Shown here: one piece after another, positions 26,037 through 31,826 of the stretch
Layout of the letters: every line of letters begins with the position of its first letter
How positions within the stretch are numbered: position 1 is the stretch's first letter
Origin: Escherichia phage GEP101
DNA length: 64,000 nucleotides
Sequence record: PQ036202
Direction: 5' to 3' (one strand)
Program-made: the position numbers and the translations under genes
Notes under the pieces: model-generated
What the model saw: only the letters and a program-made list of their open reading frames with translations
The model's database searches: none
Told to the model about the DNA's origin: nothing

Positions 26037-26522
26037 ATGAATTACATGGAGATTCGACCATTTGACACAGCTAATGGTGAAGGGGTTCGGGTAAGCCTCT
26101 TCGTAGCTGGCTGTAAACATCACTGTGAAGGCTGCTTTAACAGGGAGTCTTGGAAGTTTAATGCTGGTAAAGAGTTTACTTATGCAAACCTCTACGGCAT
26201 CATTAAATTAATGGATGATGAGGCCATCAGTGGGTTGTCAATACTCGGTGGAGAACCTCTTGATGACAGAAACATTCAAGAAGTCACCAACATATGTAAA
26301 CGTATTAAAACTGTTTACCCAGAAAAGTCTATCTGGCTCTGGACAGGTTTTCAGTTACACGAAAAAATTCATCTAGATGTGATGAAATATGTTGACGTGG
26401 TGATTGATGGTAAGTATGATTCTTCTAAACCAACAGTTAAACCATATCGTGGTTCTGATAACCAAAACCTCTGGAGAAAAGAGTATGGATGGCAAGGCGA
26501 TTGTCAATGGCGAGCAGAGTAA
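26037..26522 (+). CDS. nrdG: anaerobic RNR activating enzyme (radical SAM)
   Basis: CxxxCxxC cluster CKHHCEGC near N-terminus; 161 aa. Confidence 0.85.
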   Translation: MNYMEIRPFDTANGEGVRVSLFVAGCKHHCEGCFNRESWKFNAGKEFTYANLYGIIKLMDDEAISGLSILGGEPLDDRNIQEVTNICKRIKTVYPEKSIWLWTGFQLHEKIHLDVMKYVDVVIDGKYDSSKPTVKPYRGSDNQNLWRKEYGWQGDCQWRAE

Positions 26523-26559
26523 ATCTCGTCGTAAAATTGGTTACGGGAAAGGTGAGATA

Positions 26560-26862
26560 ATGGTTATCTCTTTTAACAGTGCTTTATTAGGTACTTATAA
26601 GGTTAAGACTGAACTCCTTGATGAGTGGAAAAAGTATACAAACTCACTCTTCGGTAATGTTGGAATGGAAGCCTTAGCAGAGATTGAGAAGGCTGGAACA
26701 TTCGAAGTTGTTGGTAAAGGCCACTTTACAATGTTCTACAAAACAAATTTAAACGTTGGTGACAGTATTGTTGGTGTCACTGAAGAAGAACTTAAAACAT
26801 TTTGTGAAAAGATTGAGAGAGATGCGAAATGGGAATCTGGAACAGTTTTAAATCAAAAATAA
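26560..26862 (+). CDS. hypothetical protein
   Basis: Track ORF trimmed to Met with AAAGGTGAG RBS (ATG 26560). Confidence 0.4.
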   Translation: MVISFNSALLGTYKVKTELLDEWKKYTNSLFGNVGMEALAEIEKAGTFEVVGKGHFTMFYKTNLNVGDSIVGVTEEELKTFCEKIERDAKWESGTVLNQK

Positions 26863-27086
26863 AAGCAGCACTGGCATCACTAGGTATGCTCACTGGTGTT
26901 GACGTTACTCATCTCATGCAGAACTTCAAGATGGATGAGAAGCTGGCTAATGAGATTATGAAAAGTATCTATGTAGGCCGTGGTAAAGGTGGTAAGAAAC
27001 AAGCCCACCGTCCGTCTGGTGCAGCAGCTATTAAACGAGCAGCTAAGAAAGCTCGTAACCGTAAACGTAACAAGAAGGCTAAATAA
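26829..27086 (+). CDS. small protein with highly basic C-terminus
   Basis: C-terminal KRAAKKARNRKRNKKAK. Confidence 0.35.
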   Translation: MGIWNSFKSKIKAALASLGMLTGVDVTHLMQNFKMDEKLANEIMKSIYVGRGKGGKKQAHRPSGAAAIKRAAKKARNRKRNKKAK

Positions 27087-27088
27087 TC

Positions 27089-27409
27089 ATGAGCAAAGTT
27101 TATAACACTCGTAAATTACAGATTTTCGTACTGTGCCAGTTTATGGCTAGAGAGTATAACTGCTACTATTGTGGTACAGGGTTCATTAGTGATAATGACG
27201 GCTCATATCTACCATTCAAAGAGGCTGTAAAACTCTTCAATGAAGAGAAAAGCTCTAAGAAAGATATTGAAAAGGTTAAGCTAACCTACAGCAAGAAAGA
27301 TAAGAAGATTATCTGCCTAGATAACTTTGTAAAAGTTACTGGAGAAGCAAAAGAGTTTATGGATGAGAGTGAGATTTCATTCACAAGCATCTTGAAAGTA
27401 GCTCAGTAA
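27089..27409 (+). CDS. hypothetical protein
   Basis: 106-aa ORF; terminator downstream. Confidence 0.4.
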   Translation: MSKVYNTRKLQIFVLCQFMAREYNCYYCGTGFISDNDGSYLPFKEAVKLFNEEKSSKKDIEKVKLTYSKKDKKIICLDNFVKVTGEAKEFMDESEISFTSILKVAQ

Positions 27410-27420
27410 ACAGATACTAT

Positions 27421-27450
27421 AAGGGGACTGTAAAGGTTCCCTTTTTATTT
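27421..27450 (+). terminator. rho-independent terminator
   Basis: GGGGA...TCCC hairpin then TTTTTATTTT. Confidence 0.55.
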
Positions 27451-27598
27451 TGGAGATAATATGTATCTGTCAAATCTGAAACGTTCTGCTGCAATGTCTG
27501 TCCTAAGACTGAGCTTTGAAGAACGTCAAGAGTTCATTGATTCCCACCAATACGACCCTTCTAACTCGAATTACTGATTAGAAAGATTCAAAATGATA

Positions 27599-27628
27599 TT
27601 GACGGACTCGTCAAAGATTGGCTATAGT
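27599..27628 (+). promoter_or_regulatory. sigma70-like promoter upstream of methyltransferase
   Basis: TTGACG - 18 bp - TATAGT. Confidence 0.45.
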
Positions 27629-27661
27629 TAGCTCATTGGAACGAAACACAACGGAGTAAAA

Positions 27662-28383
27662 ATGATGGATATTAAAACAGAGAATGCGTGGTTAATGTTT
27701 GGTGACTGTCTGGAGCGCATGAAAGAAATACCGGACGGTAGCGTGGATATGATTTTGTGTGATTTGCCGTATGGTACGACGCGGAATAAATGGGATTTAG
27801 TAATACCTTTCGATAAACTTTGGGCAGAGTATAAGCGGGTGTGTAGCGGCGCCGTGGTTCTCACTGCCGCGCAGCCCTTCACCTCCGCCCTTATAATGAG
27901 TAACCAAAAGGATTTCAAGTATACGTGGGTGTGGGATAAGGCTACAGCACCGGTTTTCTTAATGCTAAAAAGCAGCCCCTTCGCCAGACAGAAGATATTG
28001 TCGTTTTCGGTAAGGTTAAGACTTACAATCCAATAATGGAAGTTAGGGGAAAGCCACGCAAGAAAGGAGGGCATAATAAGCCAGGAGGCTCTGATAACTA
28101 CGGCCGGTTCGGTGACGCAGTTTCTGTCAATAACGAATATTACCCTACCAATCTGTTGCGCATATCCAACGCGGTGCGCAAGGGTAGGCTGCACCCTACA
28201 CAGAAGCCAGTGGCCTTGATGGAATACCTTATCAAGACGTACACCAACGAAGGGGATGTGGTTCTTGATAACTGCATGGGCAGCGGTACAACTGGTGTGG
28301 CATGTCGCAACACAAACCGTAAATTCATCGGTATTGAAATGGACCCGACTTATTACGGCATTGCGTGTGGGAGAATTTTATGA
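27662..28383 (+). pseudogene. DNA methyltransferase (N6A/N4C beta-class), interrupted by a frameshift
   Basis: N-terminal ORF carries DLPYG (DPPY-type), C-terminal ORF carries HPTQKP and CMGSGTTG (SAM motif); frames differ by 1 nt near 27940-27955; locally GC-rich. Confidence 0.65.
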
Positions 28384-28556
28384 CACCAACACTCCTCGAA
28401 TGGCAACGTAAGCACGGTATCACGGCTGAGGCTCTGGCTGACCTTGTGACAAAACCAGTACCAGATGGCATAGGTAAATGTTCAGTGATTTATCACGTTG
28501 TAGACCCTGCAAAATGCAAATCTGCAATGGCAGTAACAAACGTAACTTTTGATTGA
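28365..28556 (+). CDS. hypothetical small protein
   Basis: 63-aa ORF. Confidence 0.3.
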   Translation: MWENFMTPTLLEWQRKHGITAEALADLVTKPVPDGIGKCSVIYHVVDPAKCKSAMAVTNVTFD

Positions 28557-28570
28557 GAGAGAGAGAAACT

Positions 28571-29452
28571 ATGAAAACATCTATCCGTGTTACAGTTCAT
28601 TCACCAACTAAAGGGACTCATGAAGAAGAGTTTAACATCATCCAATTCCCTTCTGGTGAGATTGGTGGACACTTTTCACCAGAGTTTGTTGATTTTACTA
28701 CCTATGCAGCATCATCTATCAACAATGTGATTATGATTGTAAAAGGCTATGATAAAGATATATTGTTTGCTGTGGCACTTGCTAAAGAGGCAGTGGACAA
28801 CTTAGTACCTCATAAGTTTGCTATGAAGACTGTTATCTTTTACTATTTACCAAATGCACGTTATGACCGTCACATGTTTAAAGGTGATGCAGCAGCTTTG
28901 AAAGTGTTTGCACAACAGGTTAATGCAATGGGTTTTGATGCAGTCTGTGCAGTTGACCCTCACAGTTATGTGCCAGATAACCTGTTTAACTGCTTCCAGA
29001 GCATTCCTCAAAAGGAAATTGCAGTCCACTATGCAAATGACCCACTGGTTGATTACTTAGTAGCCCCAGATGCAGGTGCTTCTAAGAAGATTGCAGAAAC
29101 TGCTAAAGAAGTGGATAAACCATACATCACAATGTCTAAAGTACGTAACCTTAAGACTGGTGAAATTACTGGTATGCGAATCCTTGATGATGTTGATTTG
29201 ACCGATAAAACTGTTATGATTCTCGATGATATCTGTGATGGTGGTCGAACCTTCATAGAAGCAGCTAAACATCTTCGTGAAGCAGGTGCAAAACGTGTGG
29301 AACTCTATGTAACTCATGGTATCTTCTCTAAAGGTGTTGAAAACTTACTTGACAATGGTATTGACCATATCTACACTACAAACTCTTTAGGGGAAGCTAA
29401 AGACCGTGGCTTAACACATTATGCCCAAGTTACTGTAGCAAACCTTGATTAA
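28571..29452 (+). CDS. prs: ribose-phosphate pyrophosphokinase family protein (Prs-like; possible ADP-ribose pyrophosphokinase)
   Basis: PRPP-binding motif ILDDICDGGRT, VDPHS; start set at ATG 28571 with GAGAGAG RBS. Confidence 0.8.
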   Translation: MKTSIRVTVHSPTKGTHEEEFNIIQFPSGEIGGHFSPEFVDFTTYAASSINNVIMIVKGYDKDILFAVALAKEAVDNLVPHKFAMKTVIFYYLPNARYDRHMFKGDAAALKVFAQQVNAMGFDAVCAVDPHSYVPDNLFNCFQSIPQKEIAVHYANDPLVDYLVAPDAGASKKIAETAKEVDKPYITMSKVRNLKTGEITGMRILDDVDLTDKTVMILDDICDGGRTFIEAAKHLREAGAKRVELYVTHGIFSKGVENLLDNGIDHIYTTNSLGEAKDRGLTHYAQVTVANLD

Positions 29453-29497
29453 AACTTTATAGGGGCTTTTAAGCCCCATTTTGAGAGAGATTAAAAG

Positions 29498-31279
29498 ATG
29501 ACTAAATCACTTTATGCAGTGCCAGCAGGTTTAAACGCAGATGCTTACAAGGCATCACATATATATCAGTATCCAGATGCCACACAGTACCTTATGCTGA
29601 ACCTGACACCACGTAGTGATAAATGGTTTAACAGTCCTTTAGCCATTGACGGTGTAGTTGCTTTTGGTATTCAACGTTTTGTTAAAGATTATTTAATAGA
29701 CCACTGGAATGCCACCTTCTTTGAACGTGACAAAAAAGAAGCAATTGACGAAATCTTAGAAGTCATGAACGGTGTTCTGGGTAAAGATGCTATTGGTCGA
29801 GAACACTGGGAAGCACTACATGACTTAGGTTATCTACCAGTTGAAGTGTACGCTGTAGAAGAAGGCACAGTTGTACCTATGCGTGTACCAATGATTGTCT
29901 TCCAGAACACTGTTTCAGGTTTCCATTGGGTAGCTGGGTATCTGGAAGATGCTTTCTCTGCTGAGATTTGGAAGGCTTGTACCATTGCAACTATTGCATT
30001 GCACTACAAACGTATCTGTAAGAAGTGGTCTGACCTTACTTGTGACAATGACTTGCATTTGCCTTATCAGTGCCATGACTTTGCTATGCGTGGTATGTCT
30101 GGCTTTACTGATGACGCATTTAACGCTGTAGGCCACTTAACCAGCTTTAAAGGAACTGATAGCTTCCCTGCTGTATATACAGCTAAACGAATCTATGGAC
30201 AGTCCTACCCAATCTCTGATATTGGCAGCTCTGTACCAGCCACTGAACACTCTGTAATGTGTGCAAACATTGCTTGGGAAGGTGGTAATGAGTTGATTGA
30301 AGAAGAAAGACGCTTTAAAGGTGAGTTACAAACCTTCCGTCGTTTCTTAACAGAAACTTACCCAACTGGTATTGCAAGTGTTGTTTCAGACACTTATAAT
30401 TTCTGGAGAACTGTATCAGAAATCTTACCAGCACTTCGTAAAGAGATTATGGAACGTGATGGTAAACTGGTAATTCGTCCTGACTCTGGAGACCCTGTAC
30501 ATATTGTCACAGGTTATAAAGCAATCCACTTAGAGTGTGCTAAAAAGGCTTATTACGAACACCTAAGCAAGCTGGAAGCCAGCGACACAAAGTTGAATGC
30601 TGTTCTGAACATGAATCTTGAAGACATTCACTATATTATGGCTGGGTGGTTACGTACAGAAGGCTATGAAATGGTGGTTGACAGAGAAGACTTTGAAGTA
30701 GCTGATACAGTGCTTCTGAAAGATGCCTACATCAATGGCTCTGCAAACGTTGTAACACGTCCTGTAGCAGAGATTGATGGGGCTATTAAGACCCTGTATA
30801 ACATCTTTGGAGGGACTATCAACTCTAAAGGCTTTAAGGTACTGGATGAGCACATTGGCCTTATCTATGGTGACTCTATCACGTTGGAACGTGCAAACGA
30901 AATCCTGAAGCGTTTGTATGAAATGGGTTTTGCAAGCTCTAACGTAGTGTTTGGTGTAGGTTCTTACACTTACCAGTACATGACTCGTGACACCTTTGCA
31001 TTTGCTGTCAAAGCAACTCTTGCAAGCATTGGTGGTAAAGAGATTATGCTTGCAAAAGACCCTAAAACAGATAGCGGTGTTAAGAAGTCTGCTTTTGGTG
31101 GTGTAGCACCTATGTGGGATGGTGATAAGCTGAAAGCTGTAGATGGCTATGGATTCCAGAGCTTTGCAGATGTGCTTGAACATCCAGCTTGTGCTTTACG
31201 TTTAATCTTTAGTGACTCTGAGCAGTTCGGTTACACAACTCTTGGTGATATTCGAAATAATATTGACAAGCAGCTTTAA
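29498..31279 (+). CDS. nadV: nicotinamide phosphoribosyltransferase family protein (NadV/NAMPT-like)
   Basis: NAMPT-like motifs DAYKASHIYQYP, HDFAMRG, SFKGTDS, VPATEHSVM, VVSDTYN, IRPDSGDP; 593 aa. Confidence 0.8.
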   Translation: MTKSLYAVPAGLNADAYKASHIYQYPDATQYLMLNLTPRSDKWFNSPLAIDGVVAFGIQRFVKDYLIDHWNATFFERDKKEAIDEILEVMNGVLGKDAIGREHWEALHDLGYLPVEVYAVEEGTVVPMRVPMIVFQNTVSGFHWVAGYLEDAFSAEIWKACTIATIALHYKRICKKWSDLTCDNDLHLPYQCHDFAMRGMSGFTDDAFNAVGHLTSFKGTDSFPAVYTAKRIYGQSYPISDIGSSVPATEHSVMCANIAWEGGNELIEEERRFKGELQTFRRFLTETYPTGIASVVSDTYNFWRTVSEILPALRKEIMERDGKLVIRPDSGDPVHIVTGYKAIHLECAKKAYYEHLSKLEASDTKLNAVLNMNLEDIHYIMAGWLRTEGYEMVVDREDFEVADTVLLKDAYINGSANVVTRPVAEIDGAIKTLYNIFGGTINSKGFKVLDEHIGLIYGDSITLERANEILKRLYEMGFASSNVVFGVGSYTYQYMTRDTFAFAVKATLASIGGKEIMLAKDPKTDSGVKKSAFGGVAPMWDGDKLKAVDGYGFQSFADVLEHPACALRLIFSDSEQFGYTTLGDIRNNIDKQL

Positions 31280-31294
31280 AAGTATATGATAAGA

Positions 31295-31316
31295 GGCTCC
31301 TACGGGAGCCTTTTTA
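31295..31316 (+). terminator. rho-independent terminator
   Basis: GGCTCC-TACG-GGAGCC then TTTTT. Confidence 0.65.
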
Positions 31317-31332
31317 ATTTCTGGAGAGGATT

Positions 31333-31668
31333 ATGAAAATCAAAGAGATGAATATCAATATTGTCTTAGAAGAACGTTGGGAGAACATCAAGAAGCCTGA
31401 AAATGGTCATAAGTTCCTCAACAAAATCTTAGTAGCAGCTAAAGAAGAACTGACTGGCAAGGTTGCAGCAGCAATCACAATAAAGGTGTGTGTAAAGGGT
31501 CTTCCAGACAATCACCAATTTGCACTTGACGAGTTTAAAGAAAGCTTCTACAATCCAAACAAACAGATGTTTGAAAGTAACTTTGCAGTATCTACAAGTA
31601 TCGTCCATGACAGAAGCTTTATCCTTTACAAGAATATGAGAGGTGAGTCATGCAAGCATATTGGATAG
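31333..31668 (+). CDS. hypothetical protein
   Basis: 111-aa ORF. Confidence 0.4.
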   Translation: MKIKEMNINIVLEERWENIKKPENGHKFLNKILVAAKEELTGKVAAAITIKVCVKGLPDNHQFALDEFKESFYNPNKQMFESNFAVSTSIVHDRSFILYKNMRGESCKHIG

Positions 31669-31826
31669 AAATTTTACTGTCACTTGGTAGTGTAGCAGTC
31701 TTTGTTTACCTTCTTTGCAAGTACTACGCAGAGCACAAAAAATGTGACTTCTGTAATGGAGAGGGCTATACAAGAGCAGGTTGCTGCCCTATGTGTGGTG
31801 GTTCTGGTAAAATGTTTAATAAGTAA
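31650..31826 (+). CDS. small membrane protein with CxxC...CxxC zinc-ribbon tail (58 aa)
   Basis: ATG 31650 with AGAGGTGAG RBS; TM helix then CDFCNGEGY...CCPMCGGSG; below track cutoff. Confidence 0.3.
   Translation: MQAYWIEILLSLGSVAVFVYLLCKYYAEHKKCDFCNGEGYTRAGCCPMCGGSGKMFNK

Follow-up and report, generated by a model that had tools for sequence, protein, structure and literature searches.

NAD+ reconstitution pathway 1 (NARP1) was defined from genes 79-80 of Bas63 (JohannRWettstein), a Felixounavirus (Osterman et al., 10.1101/2024.02.11.579819). [quoted passage not shown] Activity of the Prs-like enzyme, ADP-ribose pyrophosphate synthetase (Adps), was demonstrated in vitro for SPbetaL1 and in vivo for Bas63 through its metabolite ADPR-pyrophosphate (ADPR-PP, m/z 720.010), which appeared only when wild-type Bas63 was combined with a defence system (10.1101/2024.02.11.579819). 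SPbetaL1 Adps pyrophosphorylates ADP-ribose and makes no PRPP from ribose-5-phosphate (10.1101/2024.02.11.579819), and its Nampt-like partner, nicotinamide ADP-ribose transferase (Namat), favours ADPR-PP as substrate over PRPP and forms NAD+ directly (PMC12774641; 10.1101/2024.02.11.579819). Bas63 lacking genes 79-80 formed approximately 20-fold fewer plaques on SIR2-HerA hosts, and the effect of its NARP1 was independent of the host genes pncC and nadR (10.1101/2024.02.11.579819).

The DNA analysed here (the window) is a stretch of 64,000 nucleotides from Escherichia phage GEP101 (PQ036202), identified by sequence comparison as a Felixounavirus (FelixO1-like) genome. It matched 304 phage records and was 96.6% identical to Salmonella phage S19cd. 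A sequence-only reading of the window had pointed to a Prs-like gene directly followed by a NAMPT-like gene, and both were found as described on the forward strand: adps (28571..29452, 293 aa; listed as an open reading frame from 28553 to 29452, with the annotated-type ATG at 28571) and, after a spacer of 45 nt, namat (29498..31279, 593 aa). The four motifs it quoted were all located in the translations, DDICDGGRT in Adps and HDFAMRG (aa 193-199), VVSDTYN (aa 295-301) and IRPDSGDP (aa 326-333) in Namat. Its proposal that the pair represents NARP1 was borne out by identities of 80% and 96% to Bas63_0079 and Bas63_0080 of the same genus, in both cases over the full length and with no gaps. It is very probable that adps-namat is the core two-gene NARP1 operon of a Felixounavirus; sequence similarity makes it an orthologue of the pair in which NARP1 was discovered, and the system is a re-sighting of a published pathway in the same phage genus.

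Under NARP1, infection of a host with an NAD+-depleting defence, such as SIR2-HerA/Nezha, type I Thoeris, DSR1/2 or SEFIR, would be the trigger, with NAD+ cleaved to ADP-ribose and nicotinamide. Adps would then transfer pyrophosphate from ATP onto the free ribose C1 of ADP-ribose to yield ADPR-PP, and Namat would replace that pyrophosphate with nicotinamide. As NAD+ would be regenerated directly by Namat, host NadR and PncC would be dispensable. Bas63 orthology, conserved catalytic and adenine-clamp residues and the operon anatomy were all observed here, and by analogy the GEP101 alleles probably behave like the SPbetaL1 and Bas63 enzymes.

Homology of the two proteins to Prs and NAMPT, as first claimed, was far beyond chance. 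Adps belonged to the PRPP-synthetase family (PF14572, phosphoribosyltransferase fold), matching PF00156 (1.8e-11), PF14572 (2.5e-9), phrog_619 (2e-98) and Prs structures in the PDB (1e-18 to 1e-9); only its C-terminal half matched Pfam models, and the Pfam Prs N-terminal domain was not detected in it. The S19cd homologue was 98% identical. Library representatives with E<=1e-30 to Adps numbered 481, and most of the best 150 were 260-300 aa long. In phmmer comparisons, the window protein scored 90 bits with SPbetaL1 Adps, 68 with Fado Adps and 51 with E. coli Prs. Similarity scores (these bit scores, the identity to Bas63_0079 and the failure of Prs equivalog models described below) thus placed it in the phage Adps clade as opposed to the cellular Prs clade. 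Its position 45 nt upstream of namat is also typical of that clade, 97% of which has a Namat homologue in the immediate vicinity (10.1101/2024.02.11.579819).

The alignment of the Prs-like protein with characterised Adps and housekeeping Prs, proposed earlier as a check, was informative in part. The catalytic lysine aligned, and the protein was closer to Adps than to Prs: K190, in MSKVRN, corresponded to SPbetaL1 Adps K162 and E. coli Prs K194, and is the equivalent of B. subtilis Prs K197. Activity of SPbetaL1 Adps is lost in the K162A mutant (Osterman et al., 10.1101/2024.02.11.579819). The catalytic Lys190-Val-Arg192 (29138..29146, +) lies within the flexible-loop signature KxR[DN]xxTGEI, and K190 and R192 were 100% conserved among the aligned closest representatives (approximately 144 of the best 150). 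This signature, together with PHS and PDAGA, was common to the window, Bas63, SPbetaL1 and Fado Adps and differed in E. coli Prs; as the comparison involved one cellular Prs, we do not claim these motifs as diagnostic of Adps. The other part of the check, a common ADPR-pocket signature across validated Adps, was not definable because the two validated types of Adps have different ribose-phosphate loops. In the window this loop is DDICDGGRT (aa 219-227; 29225..29251, +), a signature of its phage group (C222 97%, G224 98% and R226 59% conserved), compared to DDMIDTGGT in E. coli Prs and DDLSSFGGT in SPbetaL1 Adps; Gly224 and Arg226 thus stand where Prs has Thr and Gly.

The sequence-only reading had also held that sequence could not separate the pair from a combination of ordinary PRPP synthesis and nicotinamide salvage, in which a true PRPP synthetase and a true Nampt would make NMN and host NadR/PncC would convert it to NAD+, as a NARP2-like or metabolic boost. 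That statement was too cautious: two Namat-specific clamp elements were present in the Nampt-like protein, and the Prs-like protein failed the Prs equivalogs. Against the Prs equivalog and subfamily models, Adps scored 105 (cut-off 296), 94 (297) and 57 (536), whereas among the controls E. coli Prs scored 533 (cut-off 297) and SPbetaL1 Adps scored 81. The window protein thus fell below all curated Prs equivalog cut-offs, by about 200 bits or more, like the biochemically proven non-Prs SPbetaL1 Adps, and it had neither the equivalog score nor the N-terminal Prs domain of a housekeeping class I Prs. In favour of ordinary salvage, Pfam, PHROG, NCBIfam and GenBank names all denote Prs and Nampt/NAPRTase, and Adps narrowly passed the broad TIGR01251 subfamily cut-off (123 vs 113). 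Namat enzymes can also still convert PRPP to NMN in vitro (PMC12774641; 10.1101/2024.02.11.579819), so a degree of ordinary salvage may persist. However, the Bas63 orthologues require neither host pncC nor nadR and yield ADPR-PP in vivo, and the Nampt of NARP2 phages forms a separate clade without an Adps partner (10.1101/2024.02.11.579819). The flanking open reading frames scanned (26404-28556 and 31333-31826) contained neither an Nmnat-like gene nor a nucleotidyltransferase domain. Together with the adenine clamp described next, these observations make ordinary salvage highly improbable as the main function of the operon.

Namat matched PF04095 (5.5e-35), PF18127 and phrog_448 (3.3e-201), and its best PDB sequence matches were the Namat structures 9w5w and 9w5x (2.5e-128). 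The same two structures were the top fold matches (E 3e-54, TM 0.95) of its AF2 model (pLDDT 93), and structural similarity to NAMPT was lower (E about 1e-38). The Nampt-like catalytic core (F195, R198, D221, R327, D329, H251, D15 and Y17) was identical to SPbetaL1 F189, R192, D215, R306, D308, the catalytic His, D13' and Y15', and was invariant in 56 homologues. R327 and D329 lie in the catalytic strand RPDSGDP (30476..30496, +), and the R306G and R306A substitutions abolish activity of SPbetaL1 Namat (PMC12774641; 10.1101/2024.02.11.579819). From its conserved ATEH motif, His251 (in ATEHS; 30248..30250, +) is probably the counterpart of the Nampt catalytic His that is phosphorylated for activation. 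At each of the 22 listed SPbetaL1 ligand contacts the window protein had an identical residue or a conservative substitution (S190 to A, A362 to S, F392 to Y, and R40 to K with W43 following), so that the nicotinamide, ribose and AMP contact residues were all kept.

Both elements of the adenine clamp that argue against ordinary salvage were located by alignment. In the selectivity-clamp loop (SCL, aa 38-51; 29609..29650, +), SPbetaL1 R40 aligned to K42, which is followed by Trp43 as in Bas63. Where Lys occupies this position, the following residue stacks on adenine, with Bas63 as the example (NAR 2026, PMC12774641); Lys42-Trp43 would accordingly fit the pattern of Arg, or Lys/Tyr plus a stacking residue, predicted to supply the third stacking residue. 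The selectivity-clamp helix (SCH) was found as GSYTYQYMTRD (aa 488-498; 30959..30991, +), with aromatic residues Y490 and Y494 and with Met as Phi3 instead of the usual Asn or Val, as is also the case in Bas63. To our knowledge, human Nampt lacks the SCH aromatics. The helix agrees with the Namat-specific motif GSxPhixPhixPhiTRD, part of an aromatic adenine clamp that is absent in Nampt (NAR 2026, PMC12774641).

At 593 aa, the Nampt-like protein had been suspected of carrying insertions, and alignment to the crystallised 491-aa SPbetaL1 Namat indeed revealed two, of approximately 14 aa at residues 258-274 and of 77 aa at residues 351-427. The smaller (30269..30319, +) was variable in length among Ounavirinae homologues. 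Most of the extra length was accounted for by an Ounavirinae-type alpha/beta domain of 77-84 aa (aa 344-427; 30527..30778, +) situated directly after the catalytic RPDSGDP strand, where SPbetaL1 has a short loop (GDPEA and 7 further residues). Sequence and fold searches detected no relative of this domain, and it had no ligand-binding motif and no RyR or Macro similarity. The NARP1 papers cited here do not cover it. One tentative suggestion is that it is a functional module, either docking Adps for handover of the hydrolysis-prone ADPR-PP or serving as a lid or regulator at the AMP entrance; if so, the Felixounavirus pathway would be a mechanistic variant of NARP1. Adps and Namat of SPbetaL1 do not form a complex. 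More broadly, the domain might add or alter an activity, whether through a different ADPR-derived substrate, Adps docking or regulation. Its confident fold (pLDDT 95.7), its place beside the catalytic strand, its conservation across Ounavirinae-type homologues under purifying selection (dN/dS 0.20) and its lack of a known relative would all suit such a variant. Conversely, the domain evolves about 5-fold faster than the Namat core, and other lineages carry unrelated insertions at this same loop, an intein-like one among them; the site may thus be no more than a surface loop that tolerates insertions. Bas63, furthermore, has the same domain, and all published assays of its pathway fit plain NARP1 (10.1101/2024.02.11.579819). 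Given these points and the missing ligand-binding, RyR and Macro features, we regard a functional variant as rather doubtful, and plain NARP1 as the preferred reading.

The operon's surroundings were also evaluated. The 45-nt spacer contained a GC hairpin, GGGGC-UUUUAA-GCCCC, followed by AUUUU (29462..29477, +), with a spacer fold of -12.6 kcal/mol (z -2.6). The stem was kept in Bas63, S19cd and Seyj1-1, and in VSe11 an inserted HNH gene replaces it; it may act in attenuation or serve to stabilise the transcript as a stem. An intrinsic-terminator-like hairpin (31291..31314, +), in which a run of T comes after a 10-bp stem, began 12 nt past the namat stop codon and folded at -16.6 kcal/mol (z -3.2), with none of 200 shuffles folding equally well. 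Matches to sigma-70-like promoters in the region were about twice as frequent as in shuffled sequence (20 vs 11 expected), and the match at 27599-27628 can be put forward as a suggested promoter. A frameshifted DNA methyltransferase cassette occupied the slot immediately upstream of adps. The neighbouring small open reading frames (28365-28556, 31333-31668 and 31650-31826) had no relevant domain and were rejected as NARP1 accessories. Macro domains gave no match at E<=10 in any flanking open reading frame or in the Namat insertion, and RyR (PF02026) was absent from the flanking open reading frames, its fold being absent from the insertion too. Both genes were under purifying selection (dN/dS against Bas63: Namat core 0.04, Adps 0.15).

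This setting bears on whether NARP1 chemistry might serve mainly housekeeping, with ADP-ribose recycled (from any source, for example phage or host ADP-ribosyltransferases or NUDIX-resistant pools) and NAD+ sustained for phage replication. The operon stands among nucleotide-metabolism genes, with nrdD and nrdG upstream, and its occurrence across essentially all FelixO1-like phages does not depend on the host (229 records covered at least 80% of the query). NARP1-type pairs are also found on bacterial chromosomes. Yet in Bas63 both ADPR-PP and the deletion phenotype depended on the defence, and nearly all members of the Adps clade are carried by phages (10.1101/2024.02.11.579819). We therefore consider a mainly housekeeping role very unlikely, and favour NARP1 as a response to NAD+-depleting defences.

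Since NARP1 was published in 2024 from the same genus, and FelixO1-like genomes in GenBank carry the operon almost without exception, its identification here adds little, and the one scientific point that it leaves is the role of the inserted Namat domain. The database names are functionally misleading, with GenBank, PHROGs, Pfam and NCBIfam giving ribose-phosphate pyrophosphokinase and nicotinamide/nicotinate phosphoribosyltransferase, and no Adps or Namat model was present among the curated family models. We predict that GEP101 resists NAD+ depletion of the SIR2-HerA, Thoeris-I, DSR and SEFIR types but not aRES. Because no Macro-domain or RyR protein is encoded in the flanking open reading frames, the NARP1 locus would be expected neither to overcome the ADPR-1P-producing aRES defence nor to degrade cADPR. 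Such a defence profile is relevant to the choice of therapeutic Felixounaviruses.

Among the described systems compared are the cellular enzymes. E. coli Prs (b1207) shares with the window Adps its fold, FxxGE, ARxDR, the His, KxR and the DD...GxT loop, but the two are only 25% identical and differ in length (293 aa in the window vs 315 aa), and it is Adps that fails the Prs equivalog models. Nampt/NadV (human NAMPT and Haemophilus ducreyi NadV, 9ke8) share the fold, the nicotinamide/ribose pocket and the catalytic His with Namat, which differs in its aromatic clamp on adenine, reported as absent in Nampt (PMC12774641). NARP2 combines Nampt and Nmnat without Adps, whereas in the window adps adjoins namat and the flanking open reading frames scanned lack a nucleotidyltransferase domain. 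NARP1-AP of Vibrio phage Gary (Adps, the Macro phosphatase Adpp, and Namat) shares the core pair, but the genes flanking the window operon, to a distance of about two genes, include no Macro-domain phosphatase for ADPR-1P. The core pair is likewise shared with NARP1 accompanied by RyDEP in phage DyoEdafos, the RyR/R12 domain (PF02026) of which has no counterpart in the open reading frames flanking the window operon.

SPbetaL1 NARP1 has the same two-gene arrangement, and its Adps catalytic Lys, Namat contacts and SCH motif are shared with the window, with its Namat crystal structures superposing closely on the window model. It differs in that its genes abut, with no 45-nt hairpin spacer, its Namat lacks both insertions, its Adps has another ribose-phosphate loop, and its SCL uses Arg40 directly where the window has Lys and then Trp. 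Identity between the window and SPbetaL1 enzymes is only 28% for Adps and 46% for Namat, and it is on these SPbetaL1 homologues that the NARP1 chemistry presumed for GEP101 rests. Bas63 differs in the N-terminal third of Adps, which is another allele (approximately 63% amino acid identity over residues 1-92, and 58-67% nucleotide identity over the first 270 nt of adps), and in carrying bas63_0077/0078 where the window has the methyltransferase cassette. Between Bas63 and the window, the genus, both protein lengths, the spacer hairpin and the locus order (nrdD/nrdG, small open reading frames, 0079, 0080, rIIA, rIIB, with nrdG upstream and rIIA downstream of the pair) are the same, and the near-identity of its Namat extends to the inserted domain, SCL K42-W43 and the SCH motif.

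GEP101 encoded, on the + strand, a Prs-like gene, adps (ORF 28553..29452, annotated-type ATG start at 28571; 293 aa), and a Nampt-like gene, namat (29498..31279; 593 aa), separated by a 45-nt spacer. All motifs quoted in the sequence-only reading were found: DDICDGGRT at residues 219-227 of Adps, and HDFAMRG, VVSDTYN and IRPDSGDP in Namat. Pfam domains (PF00156 and PF14572 in Adps; PF04095, 5.5e-35, and PF18127 in Namat) were accompanied by PHROGs matches to phrog_619 'ribose-phosphate pyrophosphokinase' (2e-98) for Adps and phrog_448 'nicotinamide phosphoribosyl transferase' (3.3e-201) for Namat, and the predicted Prs-like and Nampt-like assignments lay far beyond chance. Megablast of 28400-31400 matched 304 GenBank phage records, nearly all FelixO1-like (Felixounavirus, Ounavirinae) and with Escherichia, Salmonella, Shigella or Citrobacter as hosts, the top match being Salmonella phage S19cd at 96.6% identity. 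A cluster of 23 + strand tRNA genes, including Met x2, Lys x2, Gln x2 and Leu x3, was situated at 59230-63798; large tRNA clusters are typical of FelixO1-like phages.

Among the Megablast matches was Bas63 (JohannRWettstein; MZ501086.1), a BASEL collection phage of the same genus as GEP101, in which NAD+ reconstitution pathway 1 (NARP1) was discovered and 'operon 79-80' deleted (bioRxiv 10.1101/2024.02.11.579819). Bas63 without genes 79-80 formed ~20-fold fewer plaques on SIR2-HerA cells, whereas the wild type restored NAD+, an effect that needed neither host pncC nor nadR, and ADPR-pyrophosphate (m/z 720.010) appeared only when wild-type Bas63 and the defence system were combined (bioRxiv 10.1101/2024.02.11.579819). 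Both phages shared the locus order nrdD, nrdG, small ORFs, 0079 (293 aa), 0080 (593 aa), small ORFs, rIIA and rIIB, and direct comparison gave gap-free identities of 80% (233/293) between Adps and Bas63_0079 and 96% (568/593) between Namat and Bas63_0080. Given the same gene order and these identities, the GEP101 genes are orthologues of the founding NARP1 genes. The earlier proposal that the pair may constitute NARP1 was thus supported and can be put more strongly: by orthology to the Bas63 operon, this is NARP1 in its plain two-gene form.

Compared to Nampt, Namat conserves the catalytic core and additionally has a two-element adenine 'selectivity clamp' (NAR 2026, PMC12774641), comprising a helix (SCH) and a variable loop (SCL) that provides a third stacking residue, either Arg or, as exemplified by Bas63, Lys/Tyr followed by the stacking residue (PMC12774641). 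Residues listed in PMC12774641 were mapped onto GEP101 Namat via the operon sequence of Bacillus phage SPbetaL1. Identical residues were, in the core, F189, R192, D215, A242, R306 and D308 (F195, R198, D221, A248, R327 and D329 in GEP101), G360, D361, G390, S391, R399, D13 and Y15 (G458, D459, G488, S489, R497, D15 and Y17), and, in the clamp, Y396, T398 and D400 (Y494, T496 and D498), with conservative swaps at S190 (A196), A362 (S460) and F392 (Y490). The SCH read GSYTYQYMTRD, and in the SCL R40 of SPbetaL1 corresponded to K42 followed by W43, as in Bas63. The catalytic histidine, H251 (ATEH), was invariant across 56 homologues. The AF2 model of Namat (pLDDT 93) most closely matched the Namat crystal structures 9w5x and 9w5w (E 3e-54, TM 0.95 on target), with H. 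ducreyi NadV and human NAMPT ranking below them (E about 1e-38). Chromosomal homologues of 496 aa from Klebsiella, Cronobacter, Kosakonia, Phytobacter and Erwinia (P0065-P0119; 45-48% identical to GEP101 Namat) had a Namat-type SCH, GSYTYQYNTRD, together with an SCL that follows the pattern (G/S)(N/D)R(Y/F)F, and appear to be enterobacterial NARP1-type enzymes.

No Adps structure was present in the PDB searched, where archaeal and bacterial Prs were the best matches. When aligned with its counterparts from Bas63, SPbetaL1 and Fado and with E. coli Prs, GEP101 Adps retained the pyrophosphokinase machinery (FxxGE, ARxDR, His and K190-x-R192), K190 corresponding to K162 of SPbetaL1 Adps, an enzyme inactivated by K162A (bioRxiv 10.1101/2024.02.11.579819). 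Comparison of Adps with Prs had been proposed as a check, and three approaches all grouped the GEP101 protein with Adps. Firstly, phmmer gave 521 bits against the Bas63 protein, 90 and 68 against the SPbetaL1 and Fado Adps, and 51 against E. coli Prs. Secondly, it scored 105 and 94 bits against NCBI curated Prs equivalog/subfamily models with cut-offs of 296 and 297, for which SPbetaL1 Adps scored 81 and 74 and E. coli Prs 533. Thirdly, 481 proteins reached E<=1e-30 when 1.84 billion representatives were searched exhaustively, and most of the best 150 were 260-300 aa long. In an alignment of about 144 of these 150, the ribose-phosphate loop formed a group signature, DDICDGG[R/G/A]TF (C222 97%, G224 98%), the E. 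coli Prs counterpart being DDMIDTGGTL. A flexible-loop signature, KxR[DN]xxTGEI, was common to GEP101, SPbetaL1 and Fado Adps and not found in the one Prs aligned, that of E. coli. The biochemically characterised SPbetaL1 Adps was only 28% identical to that of GEP101, and the ribose-phosphate loop differed between these two Adps types; purification of the Bas63 enzyme was unsuccessful (bioRxiv 10.1101/2024.02.11.579819). NCBIfam release 20 contained no Adps or Namat model, Namat passed the equivalog NF006629 'nicotinate phosphoribosyltransferase' and Adps narrowly passed the broad Prs subfamily model TIGR01251, so mislabelling of NARP1 genes by automated annotation is expected to persist.

Shine-Dalgarno-like (GA)n runs containing GAGAGAG preceded both adps (28553-28570) and namat (29483-29497), the former differing by 3 nt in length from that of S19cd, which alters its distance from the start codon. 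Many relatives, Salmonella virus VSe11 (L007:1508-1999) among them, have a free-standing HNH homing endonuclease gene between adps and namat. The GEP101 spacer (29453-29497; -12.6 kcal/mol, z -2.6) lacked it and instead held a GC hairpin followed by AUUUU (29462-29477), the stem of which was kept in Bas63, S19cd and Seyj1-1. A strong terminator-like hairpin (31291-31314; -16.6 kcal/mol, with 0/200 shuffles folding as well) was located 12 nt past the namat stop. As the nearest upstream terminator-like (27421-27443) and promoter-like (27599-27628) sites, both consensus matches, precede a methyltransferase gene, the methylase, a 63-aa ORF, adps and namat may form one transcription unit.

The slot directly upstream of adps was hypervariable among Felixounaviruses (27450-28570 in GEP101; L001:3320-4106 and L006:615-2341 in relatives), containing a methylase cassette in GEP101 and S19cd, bas63_0077/0078 in Bas63 and four small genes in Seyj1-1. 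The N6/N4 DNA methyltransferase gene (27662-28383) was broken into ORFs 27662..28036 and 28036..28383 by a single-base deletion near 27944 (GGCTAACAG in S19cd versus GGCTACAG in GEP101); in S19cd it is an intact 723-nt ORF, and the split gene is a pseudogene unless the deletion is a sequencing error. Positions 28400-28452 matched 'nuclease' genes from Klebsiella phages of 48 kb at 98% identity and most Felixounavirus matches started no earlier than 28452, so the 63-aa ORF (28365..28556) looks chimeric. Within adps, the first 270 nt (28571-28840) shared 58-67% nucleotide identity with Bas63, compared to 87-92% in the 3' part; judged by these values, the first ~90 residues are a different allele, which suggests that recombination from the variable slot extends into the 5' third of the gene. 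Tblastn identities to Adps fell into bands of 95-99% (92 records), 90-95% (62) and 80-90% (28), consistent with two N-terminal allele types circulating in Felixounavirus.

Insertions had been suggested to account for the length of Namat, and MAFFT and HMMER indeed identified two relative to the 491-aa SPbetaL1 enzyme: a small variable one (residues 258-274) and a large one (351-427 by MAFFT, 344-427 by HMMER) in the loop immediately past the catalytic RPDSGDP strand. The large insertion also occurred in Bas63 and in homologues of ~590-610 aa with identities as low as 46%, among them those of phiSUSP1, Yersinia P778, Pectobacterium Arno162 and Salmonella SB18, but was absent from 491-498-aa Bacillus-phage enzymes and 496-aa enterobacterial chromosomal homologues. 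It was confidently predicted (pLDDT 94-97 in context; 95.7 alone, pTM 0.85) as a small beta-alpha-alpha-alpha-beta-beta-alpha-beta domain and, since its loop follows a catalytic barrel strand, probably sits near the active-site face. Although 13 of the 25 Namat differences from Bas63 fell within it, the insertion is, on its dN/dS of 0.20 (0.04 in the Namat core), under purifying selection. The same loop held unrelated insertions in other lineages. In a metagenomic homologue (P0064, 843 aa), a ~350-aa insertion beginning with Cys directly after RPD and ending ...SGN|SG split the catalytic RPD|SGD, and resembles an intein that contains a homing-endonuclease core. These cases mark the loop as a permissive site, so the inserted domain should be read with caution.

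Further downstream, a 58-aa ORF (31650-31826) had a hydrophobic segment in its N-terminal part and a zinc-ribbon-like CxxC...CxxC motif in its C-terminal part, with weak Pfam matches to DUF5351, Lar and the DnaJ CXXCXGXG domain; its Bas63 counterpart is annotated 'putative membrane protein'. Extended NARP1 operons have been described in two recent preprints: in one, the additional gene encodes Adpp, an ADPR-1P phosphatase with a Macro domain that acts against aRES; in the other it encodes RyDEP, a glycosidase with an RyR domain that produces ADPR from cADPR signals. A domain search of the flanking ORFs and the Namat insertion found no match to the Adpp (Macro) or RyDEP (RyR) families. NARP1 is already known, and the inserted domain of Ounavirinae-type Namat is a modest lead rather than a new system; compared to the extended operons, the locus represents the core two-gene form.
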